Origin: Candidatus Iainarchaeum sp.
GTDB lineage: Archaea; Iainarchaeota; Iainarchaeia; JAGGVJ01
NCBI GenBank assembly: GCA_021158055.1
Contig: JAGGVJ010000033.1
Span: 1 to 43,198, forward strand
Length of the DNA: 43,198 nucleotides
Direction of reading: 5' to 3'
In this document: positions 1,917 through 42,346 of the stretch, in pieces
Position numbering within the stretch: the first letter of the stretch is position 1
Layout: the number at the start of each line of letters is the position of its first letter
Notes under the pieces: generated by a model
Told to the model about the DNA's origin: nothing
Database searches by the model: none
What the model saw: only the letters and a program-made list of their open reading frames with translations
Program-made: the position numbers and the translations under genes

Positions 1917-1981
1917 ACCAGACAGCCAACGGAAAACCTAAAAAACAATTTTGAAGACAAAAAACAAAAAGAAGTGATTGA

Positions 1982-2362: not shown

Positions 2363-2456
2363 AAACTCAAAGAAAGAAAAATGCCTCAACAAAAAAAGCG
2401 CATAACACAAAAAATGAAACTAAAAAACAGAAAAATAATCACAAAAGGCATTATCC

Positions 2457-3719
2457 ATGGAAATCGGACAAAAAAACCACAAATGTGTCGGAAACACAAG
2501 CATGTTTGAAAACGCTCTTGAAGAATTCAGCCACGCTGCAGAAAAAATAAAAATTGACTCAGACGTGCTTGAAATGCTCACGCAGCCAAAAAGAGCAATT
2601 GAATTTTCCATTCCCGTAAAAATGGATTCGGGAAAAATCAAGGTGTTCATCGGATACCGGATCCAATTCAACAACCTGCTCGGCCCCATGAAAGGGGGAA
2701 TCAGGTTCCACCCGAAAGTGTGCGCAGACGAAGTCGAGGCACTGGCTTTTTTGATGACCTGGAAATGCGCGATTTCAGACATCCCGTTCGGCGGGGCAAA
2801 AGGAGGGATTGTAGTCGACCCGAAAGAACTTTCAAAAAGCGAGCTTGAAGCGCTGAGCAGGGGATACATGGCTGCAGTCGCGCCGTTTATCGGGCCGAAA
2901 ACCGACATTCCTGCGCCGGACATAAACACAAACGCACAAATCATGGCCTGGATGTCAGACGAATACAACAAAATAGCCGGGCAAAACGAACCCGCCGCAA
3001 TCACCGGAAAACCCATTGTCTTAGGGGGCTCGCTTGGAAGAGACACTGCAACAGGGCAAGGCGGAATTTTCGCATTGCTTGAAGTTGCAAAAGTAATTGA
3101 CCTGCCGGGAAAAACCGTTGCAATCCAAGGGTTTGGAAACGCAGGAAGCAACTTTGCAGAAATACTTGAAAAAGAAGGCAAATTCAAAATCGTGGCAGTA
3201 TCGGATTCAAAAGGAGGGATTTATGACCCCGACGGGCTTGATATTTCAGAACTGATCCGGCACAAAAAAACAACAGGCCGTGTGTCAAGATTCAACAACT
3301 CGCAGGAAATCACAGGCGAAGAACTCCTTGAACTCGACGTTGACGTGCTTGTGCCGGCAGCCCTTGAAAACCAGATCACAAAAGAAAACGCGGACAAAAT
3401 CAAGGCAAAGCTCATAATTGAGCTTGCAAACGGACCGACTACTTTTGAAGCAGACGAAATCCTGTTTAAAAACGGAAACATTGTGGTTCCGGACATTTTT
3501 GCAAACAGCGGGGGAGTAATAGTAAGCTACTTTGAATGGGTGCAAAACAACACCAGACACTACTGGAGCGCTGAAGAAGTGCACGAAAAACTCAGGGAAA
3601 AAATGACATGCAACTTCAAAAGGCTCTTTGAATACTCAGAAAAACACAACATAAGCTTCAGGACATCAGCATACATCCAGGCAATTGAAAAAATGATCGA
3701 AGCAGTGAAACTTAAATAA
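2457..3719 (+). CDS. gdhA: Glu/Leu/Phe/Val dehydrogenase family, glutamate dehydrogenase
   Basis: KGGIRFHP, MTWKCA, GGAKGG, DIPAPD, TGKP, QGFGNAG, VSYFEWVQN. Confidence 0.92.
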   Translation: MEIGQKNHKCVGNTSMFENALEEFSHAAEKIKIDSDVLEMLTQPKRAIEFSIPVKMDSGKIKVFIGYRIQFNNLLGPMKGGIRFHPKVCADEVEALAFLMTWKCAISDIPFGGAKGGIVVDPKELSKSELEALSRGYMAAVAPFIGPKTDIPAPDINTNAQIMAWMSDEYNKIAGQNEPAAITGKPIVLGGSLGRDTATGQGGIFALLEVAKVIDLPGKTVAIQGFGNAGSNFAEILEKEGKFKIVAVSDSKGGIYDPDGLDISELIRHKKTTGRVSRFNNSQEITGEELLELDVDVLVPAALENQITKENADKIKAKLIIELANGPTTFEADEILFKNGNIVVPDIFANSGGVIVSYFEWVQNNTRHYWSAEEVHEKLREKMTCNFKRLFEYSEKHNISFRTSAYIQAIEKMIEAVKLK

Positions 3720-3757
3720 AAGCCTGACTTTAACTGAACATAACCAACTACTGCCAA

Positions 3758-4396
3758 TCAGGTTTTTTCCAGTACCAGATACACAACCCTTTTTTTCGGA
3801 TTGTCCGGGTTGTCTATTATTACCTCACCTGTCAATCCCATTCTTTTAAACCGCCAGAAAATTGAATCAAACTCTTGTTCTGAGCGCGGGTAAAACTGGA
3901 TTCCTGCCTTTCCTCCTTTTTTAAGCAGTGAATGGATTCCAGACGCCACTTTTTTTATTTCGTTTTGGTCCTTTATCCACTGCAATGCAGAAACAGACAC
4001 AATAAAATCAAAACTTTCCTTCTCAAAAAAATCTTTTACGTCACGCATGTCTCCCGTGACTGCAACGAGACCACGCTGCTTTGCTTTTTCAACCATTTTT
4101 TCATTCACGTCAAGGCCTGTCGCATCAAACTCCAACTCTTCCAGAAGCTCTGTTGAAAAACCGACTGCACAACCGATGTCAAGCACTTTTGCAGGGGGTT
4201 TTGCCTGAAGCAGATCAATGATTCTTGAAGTGATTTTTCTCTGCGTTCTTTTCATGTGAGCAGACTGGTCGTGTTTTTCAACCTCTTCAGTTGTGTAATA
4301 ATCGCCGGGAGAAGCGCATAACTCTTCCGGACGCTCTATTTTTACAGACCACCCTGAATCTTTTTTTCCGGAATTTCTCTTTTCACGCAAAGACAT
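3758..4396 (-). CDS. Class I SAM methyltransferase resembling eukaryotic Bud23/WBSCR22 (SSU rRNA m7G methyltransferase)
   Basis: RPEEL..P..YY, LDIGC, SFDFIVSVSALQW, LKKGGK..IQFYP, IIDNPDNPKKRVVYLVL match Bud23 motifs as recalled. Confidence 0.7.
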   Translation of the reverse strand: MSLREKRNSGKKDSGWSVKIERPEELCASPGDYYTTEEVEKHDQSAHMKRTQRKITSRIIDLLQAKPPAKVLDIGCAVGFSTELLEELEFDATGLDVNEKMVEKAKQRGLVAVTGDMRDVKDFFEKESFDFIVSVSALQWIKDQNEIKKVASGIHSLLKKGGKAGIQFYPRSEQEFDSIFWRFKRMGLTGEVIIDNPDNPKKRVVYLVLEKT

Positions 4397-4499: not shown

Positions 4500-7400
4500 C
4501 TATTTGTCTTTAGTTAAAGAATCTTTTTCAGGAAAATATTTTTTAGGGGTTTCAAATGAACCCAATGGCTTGTCAGACAAACCAGCATCATCTTTCTTTT
4601 TGGCAAAAAAACGGTTTTTTAAATCAAAAACCTTTTTCTTTGCAGCTCCAGCCCCTCTGTTTATCAAAGCAAGTCTGCCGGGTTTTTTTGGTTCAGGCCC
4701 TGCGCCTTTGAAAAACCCTTTTTGTTCGGCAGGGGTTTGAACTTCTTTCTTCAAGGCGCTCAAATTGGAAACTTCCTTGTTCTGGTGCTGAACATCTGTT
4801 TTGGTTTCAAAATCCGGCTTGAACCCGGTTTGTCCGGGGCTGTCTTTTGACTGAAACAGTTCCTGGCTTTCCCTTTTCACAAACTGATATGACTGATAGC
4901 CATCACCATGCGACTGCGGTTTTTGACTGCTTCCCCCCGTTGCAGGCATACCCTGGCCCTTGTTTGACGCTGTGTTTTTGACATCATTTGGAACAGCGCC
5001 TTGAGACGGTTTCGGCACAACGCTTTCAGACGGTTTCGGCACGGCGCTTTGAGCCTGCTCTGCGATGATATCACGGATAGCACCCGCACTTGGCACAGCA
5101 GGGCTCTTTGCAGAACTTTCTTCAATGTTCCTGACACTGTCTGCTGCAAGGCTTTGGCTTGATTTGACTGCAAAACTCCTGTCGGTTTCCGGCGGAACGG
5201 CTTTGGAAACCTCACGGAAATCTTTTTCAAAGCTGTCAAGTGAAATGCCTGTGCCGGAAGAATCCCTGCCTTTTCCTGCGGGCCTGTCAAACACATCCTT
5301 TTTTGACCTGTCAACAAACTTATCCATGGACTCCAGACCTTTTTCAGTTTCTTCCTTTATTTTCAACATGCGTTCCCTGGCTTTTTTTCTCCCGTAAAAA
5401 AAGAGCAGTTTGTCTTTTGCCTTGAAGCCAAGAACCACAAGAACAATCAAAGCGATCGCTGCAACAGCAGGCACAGCATAAGACATTGCCTGCGAGATGT
5501 CAATCAAAGGAACAGGCTCCTCGTCTTTGCCCTGGCTTGCCGTGACTGTTGACTCAACCAGATTGCTGCCTTCAAGCACAACTTTTATCTTGGAGCTGTT
5601 TCCAAACTCGTCACTTATCTGCAACTGGTTTGTCATTTTGAGAAGGTAGCTTTCAAGCTCAAACTCAAAATTATCCTCTTTTCCGACCGCCTCCAAAGTC
5701 ACGGTGTTTCCGTCCAGGTCAACCAGCTGGTTGCCGTACTTATCAAGAGGAATCAGCATTATTCTTTCAGGCGCATTTTCCTGATACCCGACTGCATCTT
5801 TTTCAATGAGAACAATCTTATTCCCTTCAAAATCCATGTCTGTTTTAAGCAAAATGCCTTCACCGTCATCTTTTGAAATCTCTTCAAACCTGTCAACCAA
5901 AGGAATATCCAGTTGAATCGTGTTTGCATTGAGTTTTTTGCCGTAGCCGTCAAACGCAGTTATCTCCAACGGCCACACAGTCATGTTTTTGTCAAACTCA
6001 AACCGCTTTGAAATGAAAAACCTGTTTGAATAATTTCTTTCCAAGGAATACTCTTTCTTTGAGGGTCCTGTCACAACCAGGTTTATCCCCTGGTCTTCAA
6101 ACTCGTCACCCCTTAACTCAACAAGCACATCCGCATAATCCCCTCTTTTCACTCCCTTAATAGAACTTGGCTCAAAAACAACTATTAAAAACTCCCCCAA
6201 CTCTTCCGCGTGCTTGAACTTGATTTCAGGCTGTTCTTCTTCAGGGTCTTCCTCTGCATCTTCAACACCGCCCGAAACAAGGTCTTCTTCCAAAAGTTCT
6301 CCGTCACCTTCTTCACCTGTTTCGCCGGAATCTTCCGGATCAGTGGGATCCACAGAACCGCTGCCTTCAGGCGTGTCTGTTCCAAAAAGCACCAGGGTCC
6401 TGACCGACTTGTTTTTGGCATTGTCAAACACAAACGAAGTGAGTTTCAGCAAAGACCCTTCTTTCAGTTCAAGGTCTGCAAGCTCGGTCGGAAGATTGTA
6501 AAAACAGGCGTCAGATTCGACTTTTGTAAAAACATCTGCCAAAATCTGCGAGTCAAACTCAAGCCTGAACCGGCACGAACTGACGCCGGAATCACTGTCC
6601 GAAACAACTGCTTTTATCTGGGCCGGAATTAACAGGTCCCGGCTTTCATTAAATATCCTTAAATCAAAATCCCCTGACTCTGTCAAAATCACATCAGGCG
6701 GTTTTGTGTCAAGAAAAATTGAATCGCACTTTTCACTGGTTTCCGTATCATCCTCGCTTCTGCATTTTCCGCAGACAGTTTTTTCTCCGTCGCTGTCCGG
6801 CAACACCCACGGATCACGAATACCTGAAGAAAGGAATAATTTTTCATAATTAATCCAGTCAGTGTAATCATCTCCACTGTTCCTGAAAGCGCAATCCACG
6901 GCACCGCGCGCACTTACCAGAAGATACACGTCGCGTGAATTGGTATGCTCCCTCCATTTACCGTTTATGTCAATGTTGAAATAAGTCGGGGAACCTGTAG
7001 AACCAATTGAAAAAGACTGCACTAACCTGTCAAGCTCGTCGCCTTCGTTATTCACGCAACTGATGGAAACTGACGGGTACTGCACTGAAAAAAACTTAAA
7101 AACTTCCTTGAATTCATAAACGCAGCCGTCTTCATCTTCGCTGCAGGTGCATTCCTCGTCATCACAATCACATCCGTCAACAGAATCACCGCAGTCCCGC
7201 TCCATTTCCAGATAGTCCTCTTTTGGCTTATTGTTTTCATACAACCTGCACTTTACCCCGTCACTGAAGTCTTTTATGCGCACAGTGCACGTTGTCATCG
7301 AATCATCATCAATGCTTGAGCAGTACTTGCTCACCAAAGACAAAACCTGCGGGTACTCCATGGTGTCTTTGGAAATCTTTGTTTTCGCGCCGTCTCCCGT

Positions 7401-8432
7401 ATTTAATTCCGCGTCCGTGCAGCTGAAATAAACATAAAAATCATTTTTTGAATTGAAAGCGTAGTCATACTTTACGGCACATGAATCGCACGACGGCCAG
7501 ACACTCACCGATTTTTTAGCTATCTGATCTTCATTAGCATTTTCCACAACAAACCAGCACTCGGTTACCTCTTCATTGTCTGAGACCTGCACTTCAAATT
7601 TTTGTTTTTCCCCGATCATGATCAGGGCCGGAGCCGTTATCCTTGAAACCACCGGCTCTTCAGCGTCATCCTTTACCCAGATAAGCTCTTTTTCAGCGCT
7701 TCCTTCATTTCCCTCGTTGTCAGTGCATGAAAAATACACAAAATAGCTTCCGATTTCATCAAACCTGAACGACTCGGACACTGTGCAGTCTGTACAAGGA
7801 GTTGAAACCGATGCCTTTTCTTCGGAAATCGGATTTTCTGAATTGTCTTCCACAACAAAAACACACCCGTCTATTCCCGAAGCATCGTTTGCGGTTGTCT
7901 GAAAAACAGTGGAGACATCGACCTGAACCGGCAACTCCATGTCAAGCTCTTCCACTGTGGGTTCCTTGATTTCGCTTCTGACCTCAAGCTCTGACTCGGA
8001 ACCGCTTCTCGGGTTCATGTCCTTGTCAAGGCACCGGAAATACACTCCAAATGTGCCTGTCAGTTCAAAAGTGTAATCCGCACTCACCACCAAACCGGAA
8101 GCAGACGCAGGAATTGAATCAACCATGCTTGTGCCTCTCTTTATGCGTAATTCACACGACGGCGTATAGATAAGGTCACTTACCGTGGTCTGAAAAGCCA
8201 CAATCTTATCAACTTCGACGGCCTCGCTTGTATCAATCGGCTCAATCAAGGCCTCTGCAGAAACACCTGCGAAAAAACACAATGCAAAAACTGCAAACAA
8301 GAAAACATGCAAAAAGTTGTTATTCCTGTTCACGTCACCTTTCAAAATCGTTGACTCCATAAGAGATAAAAAAGTACAATGCAATTTATATGTTTCACTC
8401 TTTTTCAGCAATAATATCTCGGATAATGCCAA
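4500..8432 (-). CDS. Large acidic membrane-anchored surface protein with tandem Ig-like repeats and a long C-terminal tail (true start probably 8360 or 8333)
   Basis: Signal peptide FLHVFLFAVFALCFFAGVSA; three ~100-aa repeats ending VYF[RS]C[LT]D; Cys/Asp-rich patch; single TM YAVPAVAAIALIVLVVLGF; low-complexity tail. Confidence 0.8.
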   Translation of the reverse strand: MALSEILLLKKSETYKLHCTFLSLMESTILKGDVNRNNNFLHVFLFAVFALCFFAGVSAEALIEPIDTSEAVEVDKIVAFQTTVSDLIYTPSCELRIKRGTSMVDSIPASASGLVVSADYTFELTGTFGVYFRCLDKDMNPRSGSESELEVRSEIKEPTVEELDMELPVQVDVSTVFQTTANDASGIDGCVFVVEDNSENPISEEKASVSTPCTDCTVSESFRFDEIGSYFVYFSCTDNEGNEGSAEKELIWVKDDAEEPVVSRITAPALIMIGEKQKFEVQVSDNEEVTECWFVVENANEDQIAKKSVSVWPSCDSCAVKYDYAFNSKNDFYVYFSCTDAELNTGDGAKTKISKDTMEYPQVLSLVSKYCSSIDDDSMTTCTVRIKDFSDGVKCRLYENNKPKEDYLEMERDCGDSVDGCDCDDEECTCSEDEDGCVYEFKEVFKFFSVQYPSVSISCVNNEGDELDRLVQSFSIGSTGSPTYFNIDINGKWREHTNSRDVYLLVSARGAVDCAFRNSGDDYTDWINYEKLFLSSGIRDPWVLPDSDGEKTVCGKCRSEDDTETSEKCDSIFLDTKPPDVILTESGDFDLRIFNESRDLLIPAQIKAVVSDSDSGVSSCRFRLEFDSQILADVFTKVESDACFYNLPTELADLELKEGSLLKLTSFVFDNAKNKSVRTLVLFGTDTPEGSGSVDPTDPEDSGETGEEGDGELLEEDLVSGGVEDAEEDPEEEQPEIKFKHAEELGEFLIVVFEPSSIKGVKRGDYADVLVELRGDEFEDQGINLVVTGPSKKEYSLERNYSNRFFISKRFEFDKNMTVWPLEITAFDGYGKKLNANTIQLDIPLVDRFEEISKDDGEGILLKTDMDFEGNKIVLIEKDAVGYQENAPERIMLIPLDKYGNQLVDLDGNTVTLEAVGKEDNFEFELESYLLKMTNQLQISDEFGNSSKIKVVLEGSNLVESTVTASQGKDEEPVPLIDISQAMSYAVPAVAAIALIVLVVLGFKAKDKLLFFYGRKKARERMLKIKEETEKGLESMDKFVDRSKKDVFDRPAGKGRDSSGTGISLDSFEKDFREVSKAVPPETDRSFAVKSSQSLAADSVRNIEESSAKSPAVPSAGAIRDIIAEQAQSAVPKPSESVVPKPSQGAVPNDVKNTASNKGQGMPATGGSSQKPQSHGDGYQSYQFVKRESQELFQSKDSPGQTGFKPDFETKTDVQHQNKEVSNLSALKKEVQTPAEQKGFFKGAGPEPKKPGRLALINRGAGAAKKKVFDLKNRFFAKKKDDAGLSDKPLGSFETPKKYFPEKDSLTKDK

Positions 8433-8609: not shown

Positions 8610-11600
8610 TTGAGCACAAAAACCAACTTTTTTGTTTTTCTGACATTAGTTATTCTCATCCAGACAATCTCTTTTTCAAGCGCAGTGCCCGCAAACCCGA
8701 CGCCATTTGAAATAATCCAGCCCGACGGAAGCACATTCATTGCAATACACCGCGGTGATGAAAAAAGAAATTGGTTTGAAACCGAAGACGGATACTCAAT
8801 AACGCAAGACAAAAACAAATGGTGGACTTACGCTGAAAAAGCAAAAACCGGACAACTTATCTCAACTGAAAAAAAAGTCACCAAAATGACCCCGAATGAA
8901 AAATACATGGAAAAACACTTAATGCCAAAGAAAAAAAACATGGGCACAACAAAAACCCTGTCTCTTTTAAGCACAAACACAAGCTATTCTGCCGCAAACC
9001 TGTCAGGCGCCCCTGCGTCTGCACCTCTTTATGCAACACTGAACGGCACAGAAGAAGTCGTGGTGCTTCCAATAAGATTCACTGACACCGCACCCGACGC
9101 CGCCCACACACCCGCCCATTATAACTCGCTCTTGTTTGACTCCGCGCCAGGGGCAAACAGCATGACAAACTACTTCAAGGAAGTGTCATACGGCAACACC
9201 ACCGTAACCGGAACCACCCTGGACTGGCTTTCAAGCACTCACACTCTGGCTTACTACGGAACAGATTACAACGGAGAAATTGACTCAGGAGAAACAGGCA
9301 CAACACCCATTTATGAACTTGCGAGAGAAGCAGTGCAGCTCGCAGACCCGTTCATTAATTTTGCAGATTACGACAATGACGGGGACGGATACGTTGACCA
9401 CGTCATAATAATTCACGCGGGCGCGGGACAGGAATCCCCACCAACAACATCAACTAATATTTGGTCGCACAAAGGGAGCATATATCCACCACCGGGAGAA
9501 CTGGTTGACGGTGTGCGTGTTTTTGAATACACAATGCTTGCTGAAAGCTCACCGCTTGGAACTTTCGCCCACGAATTCACACACGACCTTGGAGCCCCGG
9601 ACCTCTATGATTACGGGCACGACGGAAACCCGGTTGAAAGATGGTGCTTAATGTCTGCCGGAAGCTGGAACGGCAGCCCTGCAGGAAGCACACCCTCGCA
9701 CATATCAGGATACTTAAAATATGATTTAGACGCAGACCCAAGCAACGGAATACTCGGGTGGGTAACTCCCGTGCCCGTGGCCTCTGACCAGACCATAACC
9801 GTAAATCAAACCGAAACCACCGCAACAAACTCACTCTACAAAATAGACATTGCAAACACAAACCAGTACTTCCTCATTGAAAACCGCCAGCAGACAGGTT
9901 ACGATTCTTATCTGCCGGAAGCAGGGCTGATTTTCTGGCACATTGACAAAGACATGCCAAACAACAACGGCACCCCCAACAACCCTTATTACCGCGCGTG
10001 GGTTGAAGACCCTGGGAAAACAACATACAAACTCGGAGCCGCTTACTCTCAAAACGACGCGCAGACAAGTTTTACGTGGCAAACCGACCCGAACACCTGC
10101 TCAAACAGGTGTGAAACAATAATCAGCAATCAACCAGTAATCTCTTTTTCGTCAATCGGAAATGAATCATCAGCAATGCCCGTTACAGTGACTTTCACTA
10201 CGCCTACAGCACTTTCAGCTTCAGTCAACACGCCTTCAACATCCTTTGAAACTATCAAGGGGACACCAACTGCCATAAGCGTTGAAATTACAAACGGCTA
10301 CGGCTATAAAATCGTTGACGCAACAGTAACCGCTTCTTTTGACAACGGTGATTCTTCAGTCACACTCTACGATGACGGCTCGCACGGAGACGGCTCATCA
10401 ACTGACGGGACTTACGCAAACATCTGGACTCCGGCAAACCCCGGAAGCGTAACAGTAACTGTACTGGCTTCAGACAGCGTTCTTGCTGACGGAAATGCAA
10501 ACGTCTCCGGAACAATTACTGCACCGCAAAACATCCTTCTGGTAGACGATGACGGGGGCAACACATATGAAACATACTTTGAAAGCGCGCTCAATGCAGG
10601 AGGATACACTTATGATGTCTGGGACGTTTCAACAGGTGGATCCCCAACAGCAATAACACTGTTCAACTACGCGGTTGTTATCTGGTCAACATCAGACAAA
10701 TGGACAGACACATTAACAGCAACAGACCAGTTCAACCTCTCAGCATATCTTGACGGCGGAGGGAGCCTTTTTCTTTCCGGACAAGACATCGGCTATGACC
10801 TTTGGGAACAATCAAACGGAACCGCCTTCTACACGGATTACCTTCACGCAGGATACATTGATGACGGGCTTGGAACCCCCGACATCGTGGGAGTCACAGG
10901 CGAACCACTCACTGAAGGGATAACAACCGGGACTTCAGAGATTTACGGCGCAGGCAACACATACCCAAGTGACATATCCCCTGCAGACGGGTTTGCCGCA
11001 CCAATTTTCAAATACGATTCGCAGGCAGGCGCAACAGGCGCGCTGAAAATAGACAACGGGTCATACCAGATCATTTACCTTGCATTCAGCTTTGAAACAA
11101 TGACCGACTCAGCAGACAAAAACCTGCTCATGGACAACGCAATGCAATGGCTTGACTCCAACACAGCACCAACAATGGACGGGCTTTCAGTGTCACCGGA
11201 CCCGGTAAAAGGCGGCGGAAACGTGATTTTGACCGTTTCAAATCCGGCGGATGCTGAATCAGACAGCCTCGACTTATACTGTGCAACCACATCACCCGCG
11301 TCAGTGACAAACTCTGACTTCTGCTCTGACACCGGCAACGCTTCGCCCTACCCGGACATATCCTGCATCGGAACAGCACCGGCAGACAACGCGATTCACG
11401 CAATTTACTGCAGGCTATACGACGGCAAAGACTACTCAACCGAACAAACACCTTTCTTCCAATCAGATTCCGCTGCACCGACAACCGCGGTCGTTTCAGT
11501 CGCAGAAGACACAACACCGCCATACCTTGACGAAATGGATGACAGCGTAACAGACGTAATCATCTCAGGCGAAACAGACATGGCCTGCCGGTCCGGAACA

Positions 11601-14600
11601 ACTGACCTGGCTTATTCAGGCATGGCACCGGAAAACGAATGCGAAATATCGGGAACGCAGGCAACATGCCACCTTGGAAACCTGGCTGAAGCAAACTATA
11701 CATATCACATAAGCTGCCAAGACTGCCTCGAAAACGAGCAGACAGACACAGAAAACCTGGACATCTCTTTTGAAGTGGCATTCAATCCCATCCCGCAGCT
11801 GACACAGCTAGACAGCAACCCGTCCCTTGCAAAAGGAGGGCTGGACGTGACAATCACAGCCACTGCAACTGACTCAAATCTCGACTTGCTGGACCTGTAC
11901 TGTGCAACGACCTCAAACGCAGGACAGTCAAACTCTGACTTCTGCTCTGACACAGGAAACACAAGCCCGTATCCAGACACAAGTTGTGTCGGAACAGCAG
12001 TATCTGATGACTTGAATCACACCATATACTGCAGAATCTTTGACGGAATAAACTATTCAAGTGAACTGACAACCCAGTACACCTCTGACTCCACAGCCCC
12101 CAACCTCAATGTGAGTGCAGTTCCGTCATTTTCAAGGGGAGAAATAACAATCAGTGCAGACGCAACAGATTCCAACATGGACAAAGTGAATCTGATGCGC
12201 GCAGACAACCCGGAAGTGATCTTTGACTCCAACTCAACCCCAAGCGGAAGCAATTACTCCCTAGACCTGAACACGACAGCAATTGCAGACGGAAACACCA
12301 CCTTTATTGTGCAGGCAGAAGACACTGTCGGAAACACAAGCGAATCACAGTTCTGGACAGTCATAGACAACACAGACCCGGTTGTTGAAAACACCCTGGG
12401 CATTCCTGCAGAGTTCATTTCCGGAAGCGAAAACCAAACCTTTTCCATAAACCTGACTGAAGCAAACCTTGACCAGCCAAGCGTGAAAATATGGTGGCGC
12501 ACCGGAACCACCCTGCCATTTAGCGACGTCAATGCAACCTGCAGCGGAACAAGCCCAAATTATGCATGTTCAGTTGACCTGAACTTAACCGGGGTTCCGG
12601 AAGGCACGCAAATACAATTCTACGGGACAGCAAAAGACCTTGCAGACAACAACACCACCGGAACACAGTCAACAACAGCAATAGACCGCACGCCTCCGAC
12701 AGTAAACACCCCGGCAGTCGACATTTCATGCGTCGGAGAAAACAGCGTTGTGTTCGTCCCCCCTGCTTTTGAAACAAGCGCTGCCGCGTCAGACACAAAC
12801 AGCTCAATTTCTTCATGCAGTTATTCCTTAAACAACGGAACCAGCTGGAACAACGCATCTTACCTGTCCGGAAAATGCACTGCAAGCGTCAGCGGGCAAA
12901 GCAACGGCGCAAACCTGTCAATAAAATTCAAAGCATCTGACCTGGCAGGAAACCAGTCAACCGGGTCTGATTTCAATGCAACGGTCGACTCAAGCGCGCC
13001 TGCCATAGCCGGCATTTCAGTCACTTATCCAGGAGGGGACACAGTTGCAGAAAACACGGAATCAATAGTCGTAAAGGCCACAATAACCGAAGAAACCTGC
13101 AGCGTCTTCTCGGTCACCCTCGACGCAGCGCCGATCGGCGACTCACCGTCAATTGCAATGAACGACTCGGGAACAAACGGGGACGAAACCGCCGGAGACA
13201 ACATATACTCTGCAACAGCAACAGTTTCAGGGGTAACCAAAACGCAGACAATCAACATAACAATCAATGCACTGGATTCTCTTTTAAACCACTCAAAGGC
13301 AGACGTTGAAATTTCAGTCTACAAAAAAAGCAGTAGCAAAGGCAGAAGCAGTTCTTCCGGCGGGGGAGGGGGTGGAGGCGGCGGAACTGCCGGCTCGTCA
13401 ATTGAAGGCATACACTTTTTTGAAATCGTAAAAGTGCCTGACAGGGTGAAAATCTCATCCCTGAAAAACAGCGGGTTCAGCTTTTCACTGACAAACATAG
13501 CCGGAGTGTCAATGAGCGGGCTTTCCGCCACCATCAAATCAAAAACATGCGAAGACTGCTTCTCGTTTGAAATAACAAAAGACCTGTCAAAAAAACACCT
13601 GCCATACACTCCGATTAAAGTCCCCGTGAACTTTTCTGTGAAAGAAGGAATTCCTGCAGGAGAATACGAAATAGAAATAGAGCTGTTTGTGGACACCGGA
13701 AGCAAAAACAAAAAAGCAGACTCCAGGAAAATAACAATCATTGTCCCGGGAGACAAGTCAAAAAGAAAAAAACCGGTAGTTGAGCGGGAAATTTACCTTG
13801 ACAAGCAATACCTTGAAGACAGGTACGGGTTCGGGGAACTGTACGTGTACCCGAAATTTGAAGTGAGACTGATTGTAAAAAACGGCCCCTACAGAGTTGA
13901 AAACCTGAAAATAACAGAAACAATCCCAAAAGAAATACTTGAAAACGTAAACGATTTATTCACAGAGTTAAGAATAGATGGAAAAAGCGACATAGCTTAC
14001 CTTAGCTCAGAATACCCGTTCACGGTAATTGACCCTGATCCAATCATTGAATTTGATCTCGGTTCAGCAGAGCCGTTTGAGGAAAAAACCGTAAGCTACA
14101 TAATCAAAAAAGAAAGAATAGACACAGGCCTGTTTTCAAATCAGCCTGACATTGAGTACGACTCGCTTGAAATCATTAAACAACCGACTGCTGTTTGCGG
14201 TGACGGAACCTGCACTGCACCCGACGAAAATGCAACCGTCTGCCCGCAGGACTGCGCCACTGCGCCAAAGCAGACCCAGATAATCCCTGAAGAACCGGGG
14301 AAAAAAGAAGGCACAGGCCTGTGCGGAAACCAAACCTGCGACAAAGGCGAATCAGTTCAAAACTGCCCGCAGGACTGCCGGCAAACACAAACCAACCTGT
14401 TTTTCGGACCTGGCTTTTTGGTTGTTTTGGGCATCGGAGCAACACTGGTAATCTTTGCATGCGCAATGGTTGTTATTGCAGTAATCCTGAAAAAAAGCTA
14501 TCTTGCCTCAAAGATAACCAACATAAAAAAAAGAAGGGGTAAAGTAACAGAAGAAATAAAATCCATGAGGCAAAAAGGTTACAGAAAACGCCGGATAATC

Positions 14601-14717
14601 TCGACTCTGCTGGCGGAAGGCCGCGACGAAAACGAGATAATAAGCGGTTTTCAATCTCTTCCAAAGAAAAAAGGAATACTTGAAAAAATAAGGGAATTCG
14701 TAAAAAAGAAAGGTTAG
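8610..14717 (+). CDS. Secreted, membrane-anchored M6 family (immune inhibitor A-like) metalloprotease, 2035 aa
   Basis: Signal peptide plus AVPANP..QPDG prodomain, DYDNDGDGYVD, IWSH, zinc motif HEFTHDLGAPDLYD, YFLIENRQ, Ig-like stalk, Cys-rich CGN/CGD repeats, C-terminal TM; GGTGA RBS at 8601. Confidence 0.9.
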   Translation: MSTKTNFFVFLTLVILIQTISFSSAVPANPTPFEIIQPDGSTFIAIHRGDEKRNWFETEDGYSITQDKNKWWTYAEKAKTGQLISTEKKVTKMTPNEKYMEKHLMPKKKNMGTTKTLSLLSTNTSYSAANLSGAPASAPLYATLNGTEEVVVLPIRFTDTAPDAAHTPAHYNSLLFDSAPGANSMTNYFKEVSYGNTTVTGTTLDWLSSTHTLAYYGTDYNGEIDSGETGTTPIYELAREAVQLADPFINFADYDNDGDGYVDHVIIIHAGAGQESPPTTSTNIWSHKGSIYPPPGELVDGVRVFEYTMLAESSPLGTFAHEFTHDLGAPDLYDYGHDGNPVERWCLMSAGSWNGSPAGSTPSHISGYLKYDLDADPSNGILGWVTPVPVASDQTITVNQTETTATNSLYKIDIANTNQYFLIENRQQTGYDSYLPEAGLIFWHIDKDMPNNNGTPNNPYYRAWVEDPGKTTYKLGAAYSQNDAQTSFTWQTDPNTCSNRCETIISNQPVISFSSIGNESSAMPVTVTFTTPTALSASVNTPSTSFETIKGTPTAISVEITNGYGYKIVDATVTASFDNGDSSVTLYDDGSHGDGSSTDGTYANIWTPANPGSVTVTVLASDSVLADGNANVSGTITAPQNILLVDDDGGNTYETYFESALNAGGYTYDVWDVSTGGSPTAITLFNYAVVIWSTSDKWTDTLTATDQFNLSAYLDGGGSLFLSGQDIGYDLWEQSNGTAFYTDYLHAGYIDDGLGTPDIVGVTGEPLTEGITTGTSEIYGAGNTYPSDISPADGFAAPIFKYDSQAGATGALKIDNGSYQIIYLAFSFETMTDSADKNLLMDNAMQWLDSNTAPTMDGLSVSPDPVKGGGNVILTVSNPADAESDSLDLYCATTSPASVTNSDFCSDTGNASPYPDISCIGTAPADNAIHAIYCRLYDGKDYSTEQTPFFQSDSAAPTTAVVSVAEDTTPPYLDEMDDSVTDVIISGETDMACRSGTTDLAYSGMAPENECEISGTQATCHLGNLAEANYTYHISCQDCLENEQTDTENLDISFEVAFNPIPQLTQLDSNPSLAKGGLDVTITATATDSNLDLLDLYCATTSNAGQSNSDFCSDTGNTSPYPDTSCVGTAVSDDLNHTIYCRIFDGINYSSELTTQYTSDSTAPNLNVSAVPSFSRGEITISADATDSNMDKVNLMRADNPEVIFDSNSTPSGSNYSLDLNTTAIADGNTTFIVQAEDTVGNTSESQFWTVIDNTDPVVENTLGIPAEFISGSENQTFSINLTEANLDQPSVKIWWRTGTTLPFSDVNATCSGTSPNYACSVDLNLTGVPEGTQIQFYGTAKDLADNNTTGTQSTTAIDRTPPTVNTPAVDISCVGENSVVFVPPAFETSAAASDTNSSISSCSYSLNNGTSWNNASYLSGKCTASVSGQSNGANLSIKFKASDLAGNQSTGSDFNATVDSSAPAIAGISVTYPGGDTVAENTESIVVKATITEETCSVFSVTLDAAPIGDSPSIAMNDSGTNGDETAGDNIYSATATVSGVTKTQTINITINALDSLLNHSKADVEISVYKKSSSKGRSSSSGGGGGGGGGTAGSSIEGIHFFEIVKVPDRVKISSLKNSGFSFSLTNIAGVSMSGLSATIKSKTCEDCFSFEITKDLSKKHLPYTPIKVPVNFSVKEGIPAGEYEIEIELFVDTGSKNKKADSRKITIIVPGDKSKRKKPVVEREIYLDKQYLEDRYGFGELYVYPKFEVRLIVKNGPYRVENLKITETIPKEILENVNDLFTELRIDGKSDIAYLSSEYPFTVIDPDPIIEFDLGSAEPFEEKTVSYIIKKERIDTGLFSNQPDIEYDSLEIIKQPTAVCGDGTCTAPDENATVCPQDCATAPKQTQIIPEEPGKKEGTGLCGNQTCDKGESVQNCPQDCRQTQTNLFFGPGFLVVLGIGATLVIFACAMVVIAVILKKSYLASKITNIKKRRGKVTEEIKSMRQKGYRKRRIISTLLAEGRDENEIISGFQSLPKKKGILEKIREFVKKKG
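11270..12065 (+). repeat. Internal duplication of a four-Cys Ig-like module in the M6 protease (offset 621 nt)
   Basis: LDLYCATTS...NSDFCSDTGN.SPYPD.SC.GTA...IYCR..DG..YS.E occurs twice; 25 identical nt at 11308-11332 and 11929-11953. Confidence 0.9.
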
Positions 14718-24487: not shown

Positions 24488-24637
24488 ATAATAAAGTAGA
24501 AATTTTAAGTTTATCAATCTTGCAGTAAGAGCAAAAAACAATTTTGTATAACACAGGGATTTGCAAAGCGAAATCTTATATGCTTTTTCCCCGGTAATCA
24601 AATTACGGCAACTGGGAAAGACTAAAAGCAAGTCCTT

Positions 24638-26029
24638 TTAAATCTTTAAAGGAACTTCTTCAAGTGCTTTTTCAAGCTTTTTTATCAGTGACTTCTTTGA
24701 TTTGCTGTCAGACAACACCGCTTCAAGCACTTCCAAAATGGTTTCCGCAGGCACTATCCTGATTTGCTTTTTTTGCCTGTCGTCAAGGACAACGTCCCCG
24801 AGATTGGATTTAGGTATCACGACCGTTTTTATCCCGGCTCCAAGAGCAGCCAATATCTTCATCGTGACCCCGCCGACAGGAAGCACGTCGCCCCTCACCG
24901 AAAGAGAACCGGTCATCGCAATCGATTGATTTACCGGAACACCAGTCATCGCGGAAAGAAGAGCAGTGGCAACTGACACGCTTGCAGAATCACCTTCAAC
25001 ACCCTCGTAGGTCTGGAGGAACTGCACGTGAATATCAAACTGGGAAATATCCTTGCCGGAAACAAGCTTCAAAAGAGCACTGACGTTTTGAACCGCCTCG
25101 TTCGCAATATCCCCGAGCTTTCCCGTGGCAATAACTTTTCCCTCGCGCTGGCTTTGAGCCGGGGCCACTTCAGACACAATCGGAAGCACTATCCCCCCGC
25201 CTTCCCTACCAATCACTGCCAAGCCGTTGACGCGGCCGACTTCCATGCCCTTAATCTTGAACACCTCATAATCTTTCTTGACGCTGATATACTTATCCGA
25301 AACCTGTTGTTCAAGCGTCTTTGCAAGCTTCATGGCTTCCTTGACGTGTCTGACATGCACAAGTTTCTTTGACTTATCCTCTTTCGCCAAGTCCCCCGCG
25401 GCCCTCACAAGACCTCCCAGGTCACGCAGCTTTAAAGTAAGCTTTCCTTTTCTTCCTGCGCGAATTCTTGCAACCCTCACAACCTCGTCAACGGCGCTCT
25501 TGCTGAAGTGAGGTATTTTCCCGTCCTTTTTGACTTCCTGCGCAATAAACTGCGCAATAAAAAACCTGTTTTCGGGAGTGTCTGCAAGGTCATTGTTCAT
25601 GAAAATCTCGTAACCGTAACCGCGGATTCTCGAGCGAAGAGCAGGGTGCATGCTTTTCAGGTCTTCCATGTTTCCAGCCGCAACCAAAACAAAATCACAT
25701 GGAACCGCTTCGGTGCGAACCATTGCCCCGCTTGACATCTCGCTTTGACCTGTAATGGAATATTTTTTCTCCTGCAGCGCAGTCAAAAGCTCCTGCTGGG
25801 CCTTTGGAGACAAAGCAGCCATCTCGTCAATAAACAACACTCCCTTGTTTGACTTGTGAATCATTCCCGGCTCAACCCTTGCGTGAGCAGGAGTTCCAAG
25901 TCCGCCTGAATTTGAAACTGCCACTTCCCGGGAAAAAAGGTTTCCTGTTGAAGTCGTGGCATTGTACACAAAACCGTTTTTTACTTCTTTGACTTTCTTT
26001 CCAGTGATCTCTGACTCAACCGGTTTCAT
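24638..26029 (-). CDS. lonB: LonB protease C-terminal half preceded by a 40-aa C-intein
   Basis: [29 protein letters not shown] junction; Walker [23 protein letters not shown], catalytic EGDSAS and PVGGVTMK. Confidence 0.93.
25910..26029 (-). other. C-intein (blocks F and G), 40 aa, ending in Asn with Ser+1
   Basis: [40 protein letters not shown] then SGGLGTP; Asn codon 25910-25912. Confidence 0.88.
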
Positions 26030-27195
26030 ATGCCACCGCCCCCCGCCTTCAAAACAGCATCGTTTGCCTGATTTGATTTTCCCTGAGATAAAAACAATGC
26101 CCTTAACCTTTCAAGCTGTTCTTCAAACAAACCCGCAAACCCGGCAGGCGCAGAAAACACCTTTGTCCCGACCACAGCATCTTTTGCCAAAACGCGTCCC
26201 TGCGGAGTCAAAATTTCGTGCTCGCAAGTGACTGAAACGGTTTTTCCTGAATCTGTCTTCAGGCAGACTATCTCCCCGGAAAAAGGCCGCCTGTTAATCA
26301 CTTCCACTCTTGCAAGCTCCATTTCCCCTGAACCACTCAATCCGACAGTGTATATTTTTTCATCTTCCGGGCCCGAAGGCAACACAATTGCCTCGTAGCC
26401 ATCAGGGTTTTTTTCAATCAAACCTGAGTATTTTTTTGAGAGCATCTCCCAGGCTTCTTCAAAAGAAACTTCCACAAGCGCGTTTTCAAAATTCGTTGAA
26501 ATGCCTGCAAAATTTTCTTTTCCAAGGCTCATATAAAAAGTGTTTTCCCCTGAAAAACTCTGGAACGGGTCGTGGCGGACGTCCCCGAGAAGCGCTCCTG
26601 ACTTGGCGCCGGTCGCTTCAATGAACGGGGCAGTTTTCTGGGTTGCATTGTCAACAAGCAGTTTTGGCGCACCGCCTTCTCCCGCTGCACCCCCCCGCAT
26701 ACTCATGCCCATTACAGTAACTGCTGAAAAAAGCGCGCCGACTATCAAAAACGCGGCGGCGATTATCTCTGTTATCCAGCCGAAACTAAGAGCAATCATC
26801 GGCAACATGATTGCGGCAATCAATATCACAAAACCCAAAAGGCGCTGGTTGCTCATCGCTGACGCCGCAGTAAGTCGTTCTTTTTCAACAATCTTCTTAC
26901 CTTCCCCTGCCTTGACTGTCCTTACCTTTGGGTTGTTGTCAAACTCCGGGTTCGGGTAACACAACACATCCTGAAGTTCGCTCAAAGGCATGAGTTCTGC
27001 CATGGCCTGGGCGATCATGGATTTTCCGGTTCCCGGCTCTCCGATAAGCAAAACGTTTCTTCGCTGCGCTGCAGCTTTTTCAATAATATAAGATGCCTCT
27101 GTCTGGCCTATGACCTGGCCAATCAACTTTTTCGGAATCGAAATGTCTTTTGTGGACCTGAACTTTTTGCTGTATTTTTCAACCATAAAACTCAC
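26026..27195 (-). CDS. lonB: LonB protease N-terminal half followed by an N-intein
   Basis: QVIGQ, Walker A GEPGTGKS, two TM helices, [20 protein letters not shown], then intein sequence. Confidence 0.93.
26029..26559 (-). other. N-intein (blocks A and B), 177 aa, starting with Ser
   Basis: Begins SFSGENTFY right after RHDPFQ; block [26 protein letters not shown]; no homing endonuclease motifs. Confidence 0.88.
26030..26044 (-). promoter_or_regulatory. Putative ribosome-binding site for the C-half ORF (GGGGGGCGGTGG-CAT-ATG)
   Basis: GGTGG lies 3 nt before ATG, the same spacing as GGTGA-TTC-ATG at the tldD/tldE ATGA overlap. Confidence 0.55.
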
Positions 27196-27215
27196 AACAC
27201 TCCTGATGAACTAAA

Positions 27216-27261
27216 ATTAACAAATTGCCGCCTGAAATATTAACAAATTTCCGCCTGAAAT
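27216..27261. repeat. 23-bp tandem duplication ATTAACAAATT(G/T)CCGCCTGAAAT between divergent lonB and trm11
   Basis: Copies at 27216-27238 and 27239-27261 with one mismatch. Confidence 0.85.
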
Positions 27262-39554: not shown

Positions 39555-41003
39555 ATGGAATCAAACACAGCAAACATACCAAACACAACAGACCTATCAG
39601 CTCAAATACACGACCTGGTTCAAAAAACCGCGCAATACGCCCAAACCGGCCCGCAAATCACATACTGCGACGTGCGGGGCGTGATCGGAGAAAGCAACAC
39701 ACTTTCAATGAGCGACAGCGAAGGAAAAACCGATTCCACAAACGGAATCGGAATAGGGATTCGCGTGCTTGCAGACGGAGCGTGGGGATACACTTCTTCA
39801 ACGCAACTTGATGCGGCAAAACTCAAGGGGAAAGTAGACCAGGCACTCAAAATCGCGCTTGGATTATCACATGCGAAAAAAGACAAGGCGACTGTCCGGG
39901 AACTTGACCCGGTGATCAGAAGCCACAAAACAAAATACAAAATCAATCCCCTTGAAGTTGACATGAAAGAAAAACACGAAATACTGACTCACATGTTTGA
40001 CTGCTGCGAACACGAGGAAATAATCCACAATCAGGCGAGGATCAGCGCGGGACAAACAAGCAAATGGTTTGCAAACACAGAAGGAAGCCTCATTGAAACC
40101 CAGGCTACAAAAACCATAATCTCGCTTTCAGCAGTGTCGCACAGGGACGGGAAAACATCAATGAACTACGACGTCAAAGCCGGAATCGCCGGATTCGAAT
40201 TCATAAAAAACCTTGACATCGAAAAATTCGCAAAAGGAATATATACAAAAGCAGTGGATTTCCTCGACGCAAAACCGTTCAAAGGCGGTGCAATGGACGT
40301 TGTCCTGTCCCCCTCGGTCGGAGGCACCCTTGTCCACGAAGTATTCGGCCACGCAGCAGAAGCCGACTGGGTAACAAACGGAAGGTCCCTTCTCAAAGAC
40401 AAACTCAACACACCCATCGGAAGCGAAATGGTCACAATCTGCGACGACGGCTCAATGAGCAACTCATGGGGGAGCATTTACTTTGACGACGAAGGAATCC
40501 AAAACAAAAACCAGGTACTGGTTGAAAACGGAATGCTAAAAGGATACATGCACTCGCGCGAAACAGCCTGCAAAATGGGTGTCCCTGAAACCGGAAACGG
40601 GCGGGCGCAAGACTACAACCACAGAGTGATACCTCGGATGACAAACACATACCTCAAAAAAGGGGACTTTGAAGTTGATGAAATGATTGAAGGGATAAAA
40701 AACGGCATAATCGTCGACAAATACACCTGCGCCCTTGAAGACCCTGCGGGAGGAAGCTTTGAGCTCAAGACTCTCGGGGGATATGTCATAAAAAACGGAA
40801 AAACGGAAACGCCGATTGCAAGAACAACCCTTTCAAGCCCTTCATTCATAGACACATTCAACAATATTGACGCGCTCTCAAAAAACATGAGCAAAGACAA
40901 CATCGGGATGTGCGGGAAAGGACACGAGGACTGGGTGCCTGTCGGAAACCCGTCGCCGTTCATAAGGATACGGAACCTCATAGTCAACGGGGGTGATTCA
41001 TGA
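39555..41003 (+). CDS. tldD: TldD family metalloprotease
   Basis: GIGIRVLADGAWGY, HEVFGHAAEAD, FDDEG, GNGRAQ, PRMTNT, CGKG. Confidence 0.92.
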   Translation: MESNTANIPNTTDLSAQIHDLVQKTAQYAQTGPQITYCDVRGVIGESNTLSMSDSEGKTDSTNGIGIGIRVLADGAWGYTSSTQLDAAKLKGKVDQALKIALGLSHAKKDKATVRELDPVIRSHKTKYKINPLEVDMKEKHEILTHMFDCCEHEEIIHNQARISAGQTSKWFANTEGSLIETQATKTIISLSAVSHRDGKTSMNYDVKAGIAGFEFIKNLDIEKFAKGIYTKAVDFLDAKPFKGGAMDVVLSPSVGGTLVHEVFGHAAEADWVTNGRSLLKDKLNTPIGSEMVTICDDGSMSNSWGSIYFDDEGIQNKNQVLVENGMLKGYMHSRETACKMGVPETGNGRAQDYNHRVIPRMTNTYLKKGDFEVDEMIEGIKNGIIVDKYTCALEDPAGGSFELKTLGGYVIKNGKTETPIARTTLSSPSFIDTFNNIDALSKNMSKDNIGMCGKGHEDWVPVGNPSPFIRIRNLIVNGGDS

Positions 41004-42346
41004 TGTTTGAAGAAATACTCAAAAGCGGGAACTGCGAAGTGTACTCAAGCAACGTCAGGGTTGCCGACGCAAACCTTGACAACGACGTCAACGCGTTAAG
41101 GTCAACAAACGAAAGCGGGTACTCAATCCGCGTTCTTGAAAACCTCAAAATAGGCAATGCATCTTCAAACGATTTTTCTGTTCAAAGCATCCGAAACACC
41201 CTTGAAACCGCAAAAAAACTAAGCGGTTTCGGAAAAGAAATCCCAAAAAACTTTTCATTTTGCGACACCGGCAAAAAATCAGACGCAAAACAAAACTTTG
41301 ACAACCTACTCTCAACACAACTCGACGAATGCTGCAGCAAGCTCGCGGAAATCACCCTGCAGAAAGCAAGCGATCAAAACGTGAAAATCACGAACTGTTC
41401 CATCAAAACAATTCAAGTGGACTTTCGCGTGCAAAACAGCCTTGGAATCGACAAGCAGGAAAAAGGAACCTTCGTGGTTGCGGCAATCGACTCAAAAGCA
41501 AACACAAACAAACCCTTGGCAGAACTTTCATCAACGTTTTCCTCAAGAATTCTTGACGAAAAAGAATACGAAAAATGGGTTTCTGAAAGGTTTGAGCTCA
41601 CAAAACTGTTTGTTGAGCCGAAAAAAATTGAATCCGGAAAATACCCGCTTTTGATTGAACCTGGAGTGTTCTCGCCGCTTATCGCAGACACTGTCGGGTA
41701 CTGGGCAAGCGGAAAATCACGCGTTGACAAAATAAGCTTTTTTGAAGGCAAAAAAAACCAGCAGGTATTCTCGGAAAAACTGTCAATCACAGACGACGCA
41801 CTGTTTGAGAACGCCCCTTCCACAAGCTCGATTGACATGGAAGGAAACCCCACGAGGCAAACTGAAATCATAAAAAACGGAACTTTCAATTCTTTTTTCT
41901 ATGACCAGCTTTACGCAAGCTACTTTGACGAACAGGCAACAGGAAACGCAAAAAAGCAATCCGGAATGGGCGGGGAAAAAATTTATTCAAGCTCCACATT
42001 TTGCGGCTCAAACAACCTCGTGGTTGAACGCGGAAGTCACTCAATTGAAGAACTAAAGCAGGACTTTGAAGGAATAATCATTGAAGGCGCGGGTCTTCCG
42101 ATGGCTGACAGCGAAACAGGAGAATTCGGGTTTGAAATCCGAAACGGCCTGCTTTCAAAAAACAAAGAACTTACCCCCGTGCGCTACGGGATATTTGCAG
42201 GAAACGTCAAGGCAATACTCAACCAAATCAGCGCGTTTTCAAAAGAAAGAGACACCGTTCCAGACGAACGCACGGCTGAATTCAACAGTTCCTGCGTGTG
42301 CCCGTGGGCAAAACTTGAAAACCAGACAATTGTCGGCGGGAAATAA
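41000..42346 (+). CDS. tldE: TldE/PmbA family protein
   Basis: YSIRVL, DMEGNP, TGNA, TGEF; lacks HExxxH; ATGA-coupled to tldD. Confidence 0.82.
   Translation: MMFEEILKSGNCEVYSSNVRVADANLDNDVNALRSTNESGYSIRVLENLKIGNASSNDFSVQSIRNTLETAKKLSGFGKEIPKNFSFCDTGKKSDAKQNFDNLLSTQLDECCSKLAEITLQKASDQNVKITNCSIKTIQVDFRVQNSLGIDKQEKGTFVVAAIDSKANTNKPLAELSSTFSSRILDEKEYEKWVSERFELTKLFVEPKKIESGKYPLLIEPGVFSPLIADTVGYWASGKSRVDKISFFEGKKNQQVFSEKLSITDDALFENAPSTSSIDMEGNPTRQTEIIKNGTFNSFFYDQLYASYFDEQATGNAKKQSGMGGEKIYSSSTFCGSNNLVVERGSHSIEELKQDFEGIIIEGAGLPMADSETGEFGFEIRNGLLSKNKELTPVRYGIFAGNVKAILNQISAFSKERDTVPDERTAEFNSSCVCPWAKLENQTIVGGK

Follow-up and report, generated by a model that had tools for sequence, protein, structure and literature searches.

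We analyzed a 43,198-nt stretch of archaeal DNA (hereafter the window; JAGGVJ010000033.1 of assembly GCA_021158055.1, Candidatus Iainarchaeum sp.), to the whole of which positions refer unless a locus is named, and describe a gene for the membrane protease LonB that is carried there as two overlapping open reading frames (ORFs) meeting inside an intein. The genome (G000), a small one of DPANN type, comprises 45 contigs and 1.15 Mb at a completeness of 95%. All features of the locus lie on the minus strand. The N-half gene (26026..27195) encodes 389 aa from a GTG start with AGGAG upstream, and an ATG three codons past this GTG is the start used in the gene call of a sister strain (P0009, see below). 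It follows LonB as far as RHDPFQ (residue 212) and continues with 177 aa that start with SFSGE, contain TVSVTCEH and end in GGGGI-stop. The C-half gene (24638..26029) encodes 463 aa from an ATG start, namely 40 aa of intein and then 423 aa of LonB beginning with SGGLGTPAH. The ORF list bears out a first-pass annotation of this DNA, which had placed these LonB and intein segments at the same coordinates.

The AAA+ module, the membrane insert and the Ser-Lys protease domain of LonB are all present across the two ORFs. The N-extein (residues 1–212, 26560..27195) carries Walker A (GTGKS, residue 55) and, by motif and hydropathy script, two hydrophobic membrane segments at about 118–140 and 141–166, and ends in HDPFQ. 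The C-extein (residues 41–463 of the C-half, 24641..25909) begins with the Ser+1 residue and holds Walker B (VLFIDE, 64), the LID, GDSAS (346) and GGVTMK (386). The break thus falls inside the AAA+ module, with Walker A on one polypeptide and Walker B on the other. The NCBIfam LonB model TIGR00764 matched residues 11–217 of the N-half at model positions 3–200 (E 2.8e-59) and residues 16–453 of the C-half at positions 174–607 (E 2.2e-197); relative to its cut-off of 516.6 bits the N-half alone scores below, and at most the C-half scores above. Pfam identified Lon_C (E 7.6e-32) and LonB_AAA-LID on the C-half, and Mg_chelatase/AAA P-loop matches at residues 27–77 of the N-half. In all 13 intein-less relatives examined, HDP[L/F]Q runs straight into SGGLGTP, so excision of both intein parts restores an ordinary LonB, as the first-pass annotation had claimed. 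The predicted spliced protein has 635 aa, and intein-less lonB frames of relatives have 624–777 aa. The sole other LonB-like frame of the genome, on a second contig (G000 contig C37:4816-6183; L079, L081), is 483 aa long and matches model positions 3–93 and 170–402. This paralogue consists of the AAA+ module only, without membrane insert and protease domain. The split gene is the only complete lonB of this 95%-complete genome.

The intein N-part (IntN) consists of a core (residues 213 to about 345, 26161..26559) with Ser1, a helical insert and block B T-C-E-H, and of a C-terminal tail of about 44 aa (26029..26160) that ends in GGGGI and has no counterpart in relatives; at 177 aa in total it exceeds the 122–151 aa found in relatives. 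The intein C-part (IntC, residues 1–40 of the C-half, 25910..26029) holds blocks F and G and ends in REVAVSN. Ser1 (Ser213) directly follows DPFQ, and this position is C or S in relatives and T or S in contiguous alleles. Within block B, T111, E113 and H114 are invariant in the 25 sequences of an IntN alignment (A5). The terminal Asn (N40) and Ser+1 (S41) are invariant in 21 C-halves, and within IntC G19, V21, Y22, N23, T25, T26, G29, N30 and N40 are invariant in 21 sequences. Compared with solved structures, the A5 profile matched best to the intein of Methanocaldococcus jannaschii MJ0781 (KlbA; 2jmz, E 1.1e-9), over profile positions 20–115 including the helical insert and block B. Further matches were to the Pab PolC intein (1e-3), VMA inteins (about 1e-3), PI-PkoII (8e-3) and NrdJ-1 (1.4e-2), with four inteins besides 2jmz at E below 0.01. 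Unlike the lonB intein of the window, 2jmz is a contiguous mini-intein from another host protein, and its match indicates only that IntN is an intein splicing domain. Of the 25 family members, 19 were also matched by Pfam Intein_splicing. The intein model search suggested by the first-pass annotation thus came out positive for the family, and the window IntN taken alone stayed subthreshold (see below).

At the junction, the N-half stop and the C-half start overlap as ATGA in the ORF list (26026..26029), and a Shine-Dalgarno-like GGTGG (26033..26037) lies 3 nt before the C-half ATG. The first-pass annotation had likened this design to the tldD/tldE junction of the window, and rightly so: the two ORFs there (39555-41003 and 41000-42346, PmbA/TldD family) also overlap as ATGA, with GGGGGTGATTC ahead of the tldE ATG, and GGTG stands 4–5 nt ahead of several other starts in the window. 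Upstream of its ATG the C-half frame stays open for 27 codons; therefore a one-base error could have produced the two-ORF picture. A run of six G within the IntN tail (26039..26044) is the sole obvious spot for a +1 slip that would fuse the frames. Reading the TGA as sense was considered as another route to a fused frame and rejected, as the N frame then meets another stop after 14 codons.

The break is real in the DNA and not an assembly error. We examined the junction in assembled contigs, not raw reads, of four public runs over 24600-27250. In X1, the possible source of the present DNA, record 1 spans 24600-27250 with 0 differences and 0 gaps, and in X2, another sample of the same study, record 9 spans 24600-26545, again with 0 differences and 0 gaps. 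X3 and X4 come from different studies, are labelled as cold-seep metagenomes and hold relatives at 93–94% identity; record 21 of X3, a run that leaves some parts of the stretch uncovered, spans 25708-26433 with 44 differences and 0 gaps, and for record 27 of X4 the span is 25330-26118, with 56 differences and likewise 0 gaps. Neither record has an indel where it crosses the junction. The extra base that the first-pass annotation had named as a possible fusing error was absent: no fusing indel was found at the junction, including 26030-26118 and the G6 run, in the contigs of any of the four runs. None of the indels listed for the intein shifts the frame for good: X3 and X4 share a 12-nt in-frame deletion at 26490-26500, and one X4 contig has a -1 and a compensating +1 change five bases apart. 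A profile search with IntN across 1.84 billion representative proteins additionally returned P0009, an independent 382-aa gene call on a 2541-nt NCBI-sourced contig, which is 95% identical to the window N-half (367/386) and ends at the same GGGGI. P0009 carries the same 4-aa IntN deletion as X3 and X4 (26490-26500), from which it follows that this N-terminal loop of IntN tolerates length change. Between the window and P0009, 3/209 extein, 7/133 IntN core and 5/44 tail residues differ. Constraint between the strains is graded from extein over IntN core to tail, and frame and stop are kept.

Nor is the window an isolated case; it is one compact member of a large split-lonB family within the archaeal class. 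Using a 183-aa query (IntN plus six extein residues), we obtained matches in 54 of 215 class genomes at E≤1e-5 and in 50 at E≤1e-8; the stricter threshold was that of a phylum-level search, which drew on the same 215 genomes. Leaving G000 aside, 49 genomes match at E≤1e-8, and in 47 of them the frame ends inside the intein; only G047 (1124-aa frame) and G022 (1158-aa frame) are contiguous. We inspected 24 relatives in which both halves lie on one contig. All 24 have separate N and C ORFs on the same strand, with gaps of 287–4331 nt, and the window is the only locus without a gap. The C-half ORF likewise starts at a comparable place in 24/24: IntC begins about 17–22 residues before the block G-[HYF]-VYNVTTETGNLFVE..LVHN, followed by SGGLGTP, and the ATG of the window C-half is placed in the same way. 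The first-pass annotation had read the locus as a natural split intein and proposed looking for the same break in related genomes; the 47 split alleles, the kept catalytic residues and the profile matches to solved inteins speak for that reading. Contiguous alleles at the same DP[LF]Q/SGG site occur in G022, G047 and G053, with inteins of about 495 aa, and in protein P0016. A further protein, P0008 (837 aa), is a contiguous LonB whose mini-intein at this site has 173 aa and lacks an endonuclease; either its halves fused again or the gene never fractured, and it would serve well as a cis-splicing comparator.

To place the window among these alleles we computed an IntN tree of 40 rows (25 loci, 5 contiguous alleles and 10 of 150 listed representatives; 128 columns, LG+C20). 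The window and P0009 (support 100/100) are nested in a 32-row clade made up entirely of split N-halves (97/89). Four contiguous endonuclease-bearing alleles form a separate clade (96/95), and the mini-intein P0008 falls outside both. Because the window and P0009 sit among split N-halves only, the tree favors descent from an already split ancestor, probably via loss of the intervening DNA, over a fresh frameshift in a mini-intein.

We consider it likely that the window carries a naturally split intein and that mature LonB is made by protein trans-splicing, a reading that draws on the conserved catalytic residues and the need for an intact LonB. The two genes would be transcribed together and yield two polypeptides, with the C-half translated by coupling through ATGA and GGTGG. 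Since the halves abut, there is no room for a promoter ahead of the C-half, and we infer that co-transcription and coupled translation deliver the halves in roughly equal amounts. The membrane-anchored N-half would contribute Walker A, two membrane helices and 177 aa of intein, and the soluble C-half 40 aa of intein followed by Walker B, the LID and the protease domain. Judging from the sequence, IntN and IntC would associate and fold into one HINT domain, which would then follow the class-1 pathway: acyl shift at Ser1, transesterification to Ser+1, cyclization of the terminal Asn and an O-to-N shift. The predicted outcome is the joining of DPFQ to SGGLGTP in a 635-aa LonB.

Several observations weigh against this reading. 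The window intein is the most divergent of the set: IntN alone is subthreshold for Pfam Intein_splicing (E 0.017) and reaches 20.1 bits with TIGR01445 (E 9.5e-4; cut-off 24.5 bits). The penultimate His of block G is replaced by Ser, IntC departs from the nearly invariant positions V24, E27, E34, L37 and V38 (alignment A4), and block F is without the usual Asp and His, a trait found family-wide including the contiguous alleles. The 44-aa tail looks nearly unconstrained and could either hinder assembly of the halves or be irrelevant to it. The first-pass annotation had pointed to an acidic N-part and a Lys-rich C-part; this holds for the window (net charge -8 for IntN and +2 with 5 Lys for IntC) and fails as a family trait, IntN ranging from -5 to +9 in 24 relatives, so that we dropped charge complementarity as a family-level argument. 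No RNA run is listed among the public runs that carry the stretch. The junction evidence consists of contigs, with X1 possibly the source and X2 from the same study; retention of the ATG and TGA in X3 and X4 was not seen directly, as 126 base differences lie outside those listed, and P0009 shows the same ORF end. Finally, the tree is short (128 columns), its bootstrap was unconverged (0.958) and it has a midpoint root only.

The divergence of the intein bears most on an alternative in which the intein halves still bind but no longer splice, acting as a dimerization module of a non-covalent two-subunit LonB. The loss of the penultimate His, the several changed IntC positions, the missing Asp and His of block F and the seemingly unconstrained IntN tail would all fit such a state. 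Yet Ser1, Ser+1, the terminal Asn and T-x-x-H are all kept, though only splicing needs them. The penultimate residue is also variable outside the window (19 of 24 relatives carry H, three S, one C and one K, hence S, C or K in five). In the portion of PMC4031507 at hand this His is described as an assisting residue, not a nucleophile, and its reference list includes a title on splicing without a penultimate His. Moreover, a 217-aa insert between Walker A and Walker B would probably disturb a hexameric ATPase. We regard a non-splicing dimer as unlikely.

Less probable still is that lonB is a decaying pseudogene in an organism that does without working LonB. In favor of this stand the reduced genomes of DPANN archaea, the divergence of the window intein, and the paralogue on the other contig, a second LonB-like AAA+ gene. 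That paralogue, however, has no protease domain, and both ORFs of the split gene are full length, free of internal stops and intact in their catalytic motifs. The C-extein is 56–65% identical to the C-halves of relatives, and the N-extein differs from the sister strain by only the three residues noted above at about 6% DNA divergence. Furthermore, the LonB C-half was matched in 202/215 class genomes and in 58/58 high-quality genomes, which argues against dispensability.

A sequencing or assembly frameshift in a contiguous 217-aa mini-intein, which would leave one cis-splicing ORF, is already largely refuted and retains next to no probability. The open C frame with its G6 run makes such an error conceivable, and P0008 demonstrates that a contiguous mini-intein allele exists elsewhere. 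But the contigs of all four runs, including the two relatives at 93–94%, lack a junction indel, P0009 ends at the same residue, an ATG with a Shine-Dalgarno-like site stands where C-halves of relatives start, and the window groups with split alleles in the IntN tree. Scarcely credible to the same degree is a programmed +1 ribosomal frameshift on the G6 run giving a contiguous cis-splicing precursor: the GGG GGC context would let tRNA-Gly re-pair at +1 and those 27 codons of the C frame are open, but no stimulatory element was identified, the halves of relatives lie kilobases apart, and the conserved ATG with its Shine-Dalgarno-like site makes the event unnecessary and at most a minor side route. 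Because the halves of relatives are kilobases apart, trans-splicing would be the normal mode of the family.

What lies between the halves in relatives points to the origin of the split. At most loci we found same-strand ORFs of 320–400 aa, 15 of which were aligned (A2; 52% mean column identity; e.g. L021:2888-3892, L022:3495-4619 and L023:3061-4131). Conserved basic and aromatic residues abound in their N-terminal region, and two of their motifs are LAGLIDADG-like. Pfam returned no match at E≤0.01 for any of ten A2 ORFs, the A2 profile matched nothing meaningful in the PDB (best E 0.059, a penicillin-binding protein), and in PHROGs it matched only phrog_14115, a family of unknown function. LAGLIDADG_3 was weakly matched by 2 of the 15 members (best E 0.013). 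The LAGLIDADG label rests on the two motifs and these weak matches, because Pfam, PDB and PHROGs name no family. A2 aligned to residues 328–647 of the contiguous 1135-aa LonB of G022 with an hhalign probability of 100 (E 1.1e-49, 33% identity), and this segment is the insert of the same intein in unbroken form. The homology suggests that a bifunctional intein underwent fission, and not that a foreign endonuclease invaded it. No match was obtained between A2 and the contiguous LonB of G003, whose intein belongs to another lineage.

The A2 family matched 78/215 genomes at E≤1e-10. Full-length matches (E≤1e-120) occurred in 35 genomes beside split lonB, as established on fetched loci and elsewhere by coordinates; weaker matches sit inside frames of roughly 600–1700 aa elsewhere, as expected for endonuclease domains of other inteins. 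A2 is probably an undescribed branch of intein-borne and free-standing homing endonucleases. Decayed copies stand beside lonB in G095 (7 stops) and G052 (two copies, 3 stops each). In G000 the A2 family had no match at E≤1, and the window, with its gap of -4 nt, holds no endonuclease ORF between the halves. As for the 44-aa IntN tail, descent from an endonuclease ORF was considered and rejected as unsupported: hhalign of A2 against IntN gave a spurious 17-column match in the core (E 0.1). A 367-aa intervening ORF at L072 was dropped as an A2 member at 20% identity.

Ahead of most C-half ATGs of relatives, at a distance of about 25–37 nt, lies a TATTTAAT/TTTAAA box with similar flanks (seen at L022, L058, L061, L067, L070, L073, L075, L076 and others), which is absent in the window. 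By the usual layout of archaeal promoters, such a TATA-like box would be the C-half's own promoter and give a short-leader or leaderless mRNA. The sequence suggests that this box is a dedicated C-half promoter that arose, or travelled, with the split. Unrelated genes usually intervene as well, among them TPR and Lcl_C proteins and opposite-strand ORFs. Given these genes and the TATA-like box of the C-half, the halves are independent genes in relatives.

Two further kinds of ORF were seen in the gap. An ORF of about 230 aa with a weak match to Zn-dependent phospholipase C (E 7e-8 to 5e-6) recurs in this position in at least five genomes, which belong to different families (L025:3824-4522, L057:2786-3505, L069:1869-2558, L075:1836-2531, and twice at L076, 2160-2858 and 4115-4795). 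In G146 the gap holds a reverse transcriptase ORF (L074:1830-3125, RVT_1 E 3.7e-19), which may reflect insertion of a group II intron or a retron-like element.

The split itself also varies. In G192 the halves are on different contigs (L082 on G192:C2 and L083 on G192:C79) and at least 5.8 kb apart: the 2.4 kb past the N-half, a 347-aa ORF, and the 3.4 kb ahead of the C-half hold other genes, and both halves are neighbored by paralogous ORFs of about 300 aa. G192 may represent a stage at which the halves are fully uncoupled. In G008 (L025, C1:150000-158000) LonB is spread over three ORFs at 1363-3771, 4695-6578 and 6575-7792 of the locus. In the first (802 aa) a contiguous intein interrupts the P-loop, and the C-terminus is formed by the N-part of the split intein at the site discussed so far (site a). 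The second (627 aa) opens with the site-a C-part and closes with the N-part of another intein, to which an endonuclease-like domain is fused; the third (405 aa) opens with the C-part of that other intein, with an ATGA overlap and GAGGAG upstream. Two different split inteins appear to serve a single protein in G008, and frames of 620–665 aa with A2-like matches in G055, G187, G182, G052, G202, G129 and G049 suggest that the three-piece LonB recurs.

For the history of the element we propose the following order of steps. A bifunctional intein would have broken into three ORFs: N-half, free-standing endonuclease-like gene and C-half. The window would represent a late stage, in which the endonuclease gene was lost, the halves came to abut, and the C-half exchanged its own promoter for translational coupling. 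A well-supported 13-row clade of the IntN tree includes some members of the host families f7, f8, f12 and f22 while others fall outside it, and presence within genera is patchy (4/7 in g42, 1/6 in g17). This pattern fits horizontal movement or a long-lived polymorphism of the element. We tentatively hypothesize, while rating it at somewhat less than even, that the lonB split intein is a still-mobile three-gene homing cassette born from fission, and that the window is its domesticated end state, with obligatory Ser1/Ser+1 trans-splicing for the only LonB. If so, a cassette of IntN, LAGLIDADG-like endonuclease and IntC would move between lineages as a unit. One locus would then display contiguous endonuclease-bearing, mini-intein, fractured, foreign-gene-bearing, adjacent, separate-contig and three-piece stages, and would supply a set of natural, possibly orthogonal, redox-insensitive split inteins.

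The closest known counterparts are the 'fractured genes' of Dassa et al. [quoted passage not shown] In both cases an enzyme gene is broken inside an intein, at the region of endonuclease insertion, with the halves in one locus on one strand, and the lonB relatives likewise hold a free-standing endonuclease-like gene between them. The window corresponds to 'step III' of that scheme, with the halves side by side once the endonuclease gene has gone, as in their locus gp41-7. By contrast, the host here is a membrane protease, the organisms are cellular archaea where the fractured genes came from mostly phage-like sequences, and the likeness of the intervening ORF to LAGLIDADG enzymes is confined to motifs and weak HMM (hidden Markov model) matches. 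This ORF is homologous to the insert of its own intein, whereas the 2009 paper, in the text at hand, merely predicted that LAGLIDADG enzymes could take part.

Like DnaE of cyanobacteria and PolB of Nanoarchaeum equitans, as presented in parts of PMC2677866 and PMC4760082, the window has two genes for one essential enzyme, the canonical split site and no endonuclease at the locus. Their halves, however, lie at separate loci, while those of lonB overlap by 4 nt and are probably translated together, and the host protein differs. The nucleophiles of the DnaE split intein are Cys/Cys, those of the window Ser1/Ser+1. Contiguous archaeal Lon inteins share the host protein, and those splice in cis from one polypeptide; according to the first-pass annotation, DPFQ/SGG is their insertion site in Thermococcales. 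LonB is given with 10 inteins in Euryarchaeota in the sections of PMC4760082 at hand, which name only PolIII-alpha inteins as split. The reference list of PMC4031507 contains the title of a paper on the Pyrococcus abyssi Lon intein. In what is accessible of PMC5498576, 'intein-mediated trans-splice' appears only as a category absent from one Micrarchaeon. The first-pass annotation knew of no split intein in Lon, and none turned up here either: we found no description of a split Lon or LonB intein in the literature covered, with supplementary intein lists (e.g. those of PMC4760082 and PMC7090010) lying outside it. What is apparently new is LonB as a host, the lineage, an endonuclease homologous to the intein's own insert, and the scale, at about a quarter of the class.

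Natural split inteins are few, and the literature covered places them in enzymes of DNA metabolism, from cyanobacteria, phage-like sequences and Nanoarchaeum. In the present class of small-genome archaea, the protein predicted to be put together after translation is an ATP-dependent membrane protease with a role in protein quality control. The main value of the lonB family lies in its evolutionary series and in its Ser/Ser split inteins. The series of intein splitting is unusually complete and points to a fission route that the 2009 model little emphasized. According to the available part of PMC13014065, there is demand for Ser/Ser split inteins that lack catalytic cysteines, and the family offers dozens of diverged natural split intein pairs for protein engineering. 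In public records related N-halves, from genomes labelled Micrarchaeota or Diapherotrites, are named only 'ATP-binding protein', so LonB is probably scored as missing or truncated in these genomes.

Elsewhere in the window, two divergent ORFs at 4500-8432 (minus strand, 1310 aa) and 8610-14717 (plus strand, 2035 aa) together occupy about a quarter of its length.

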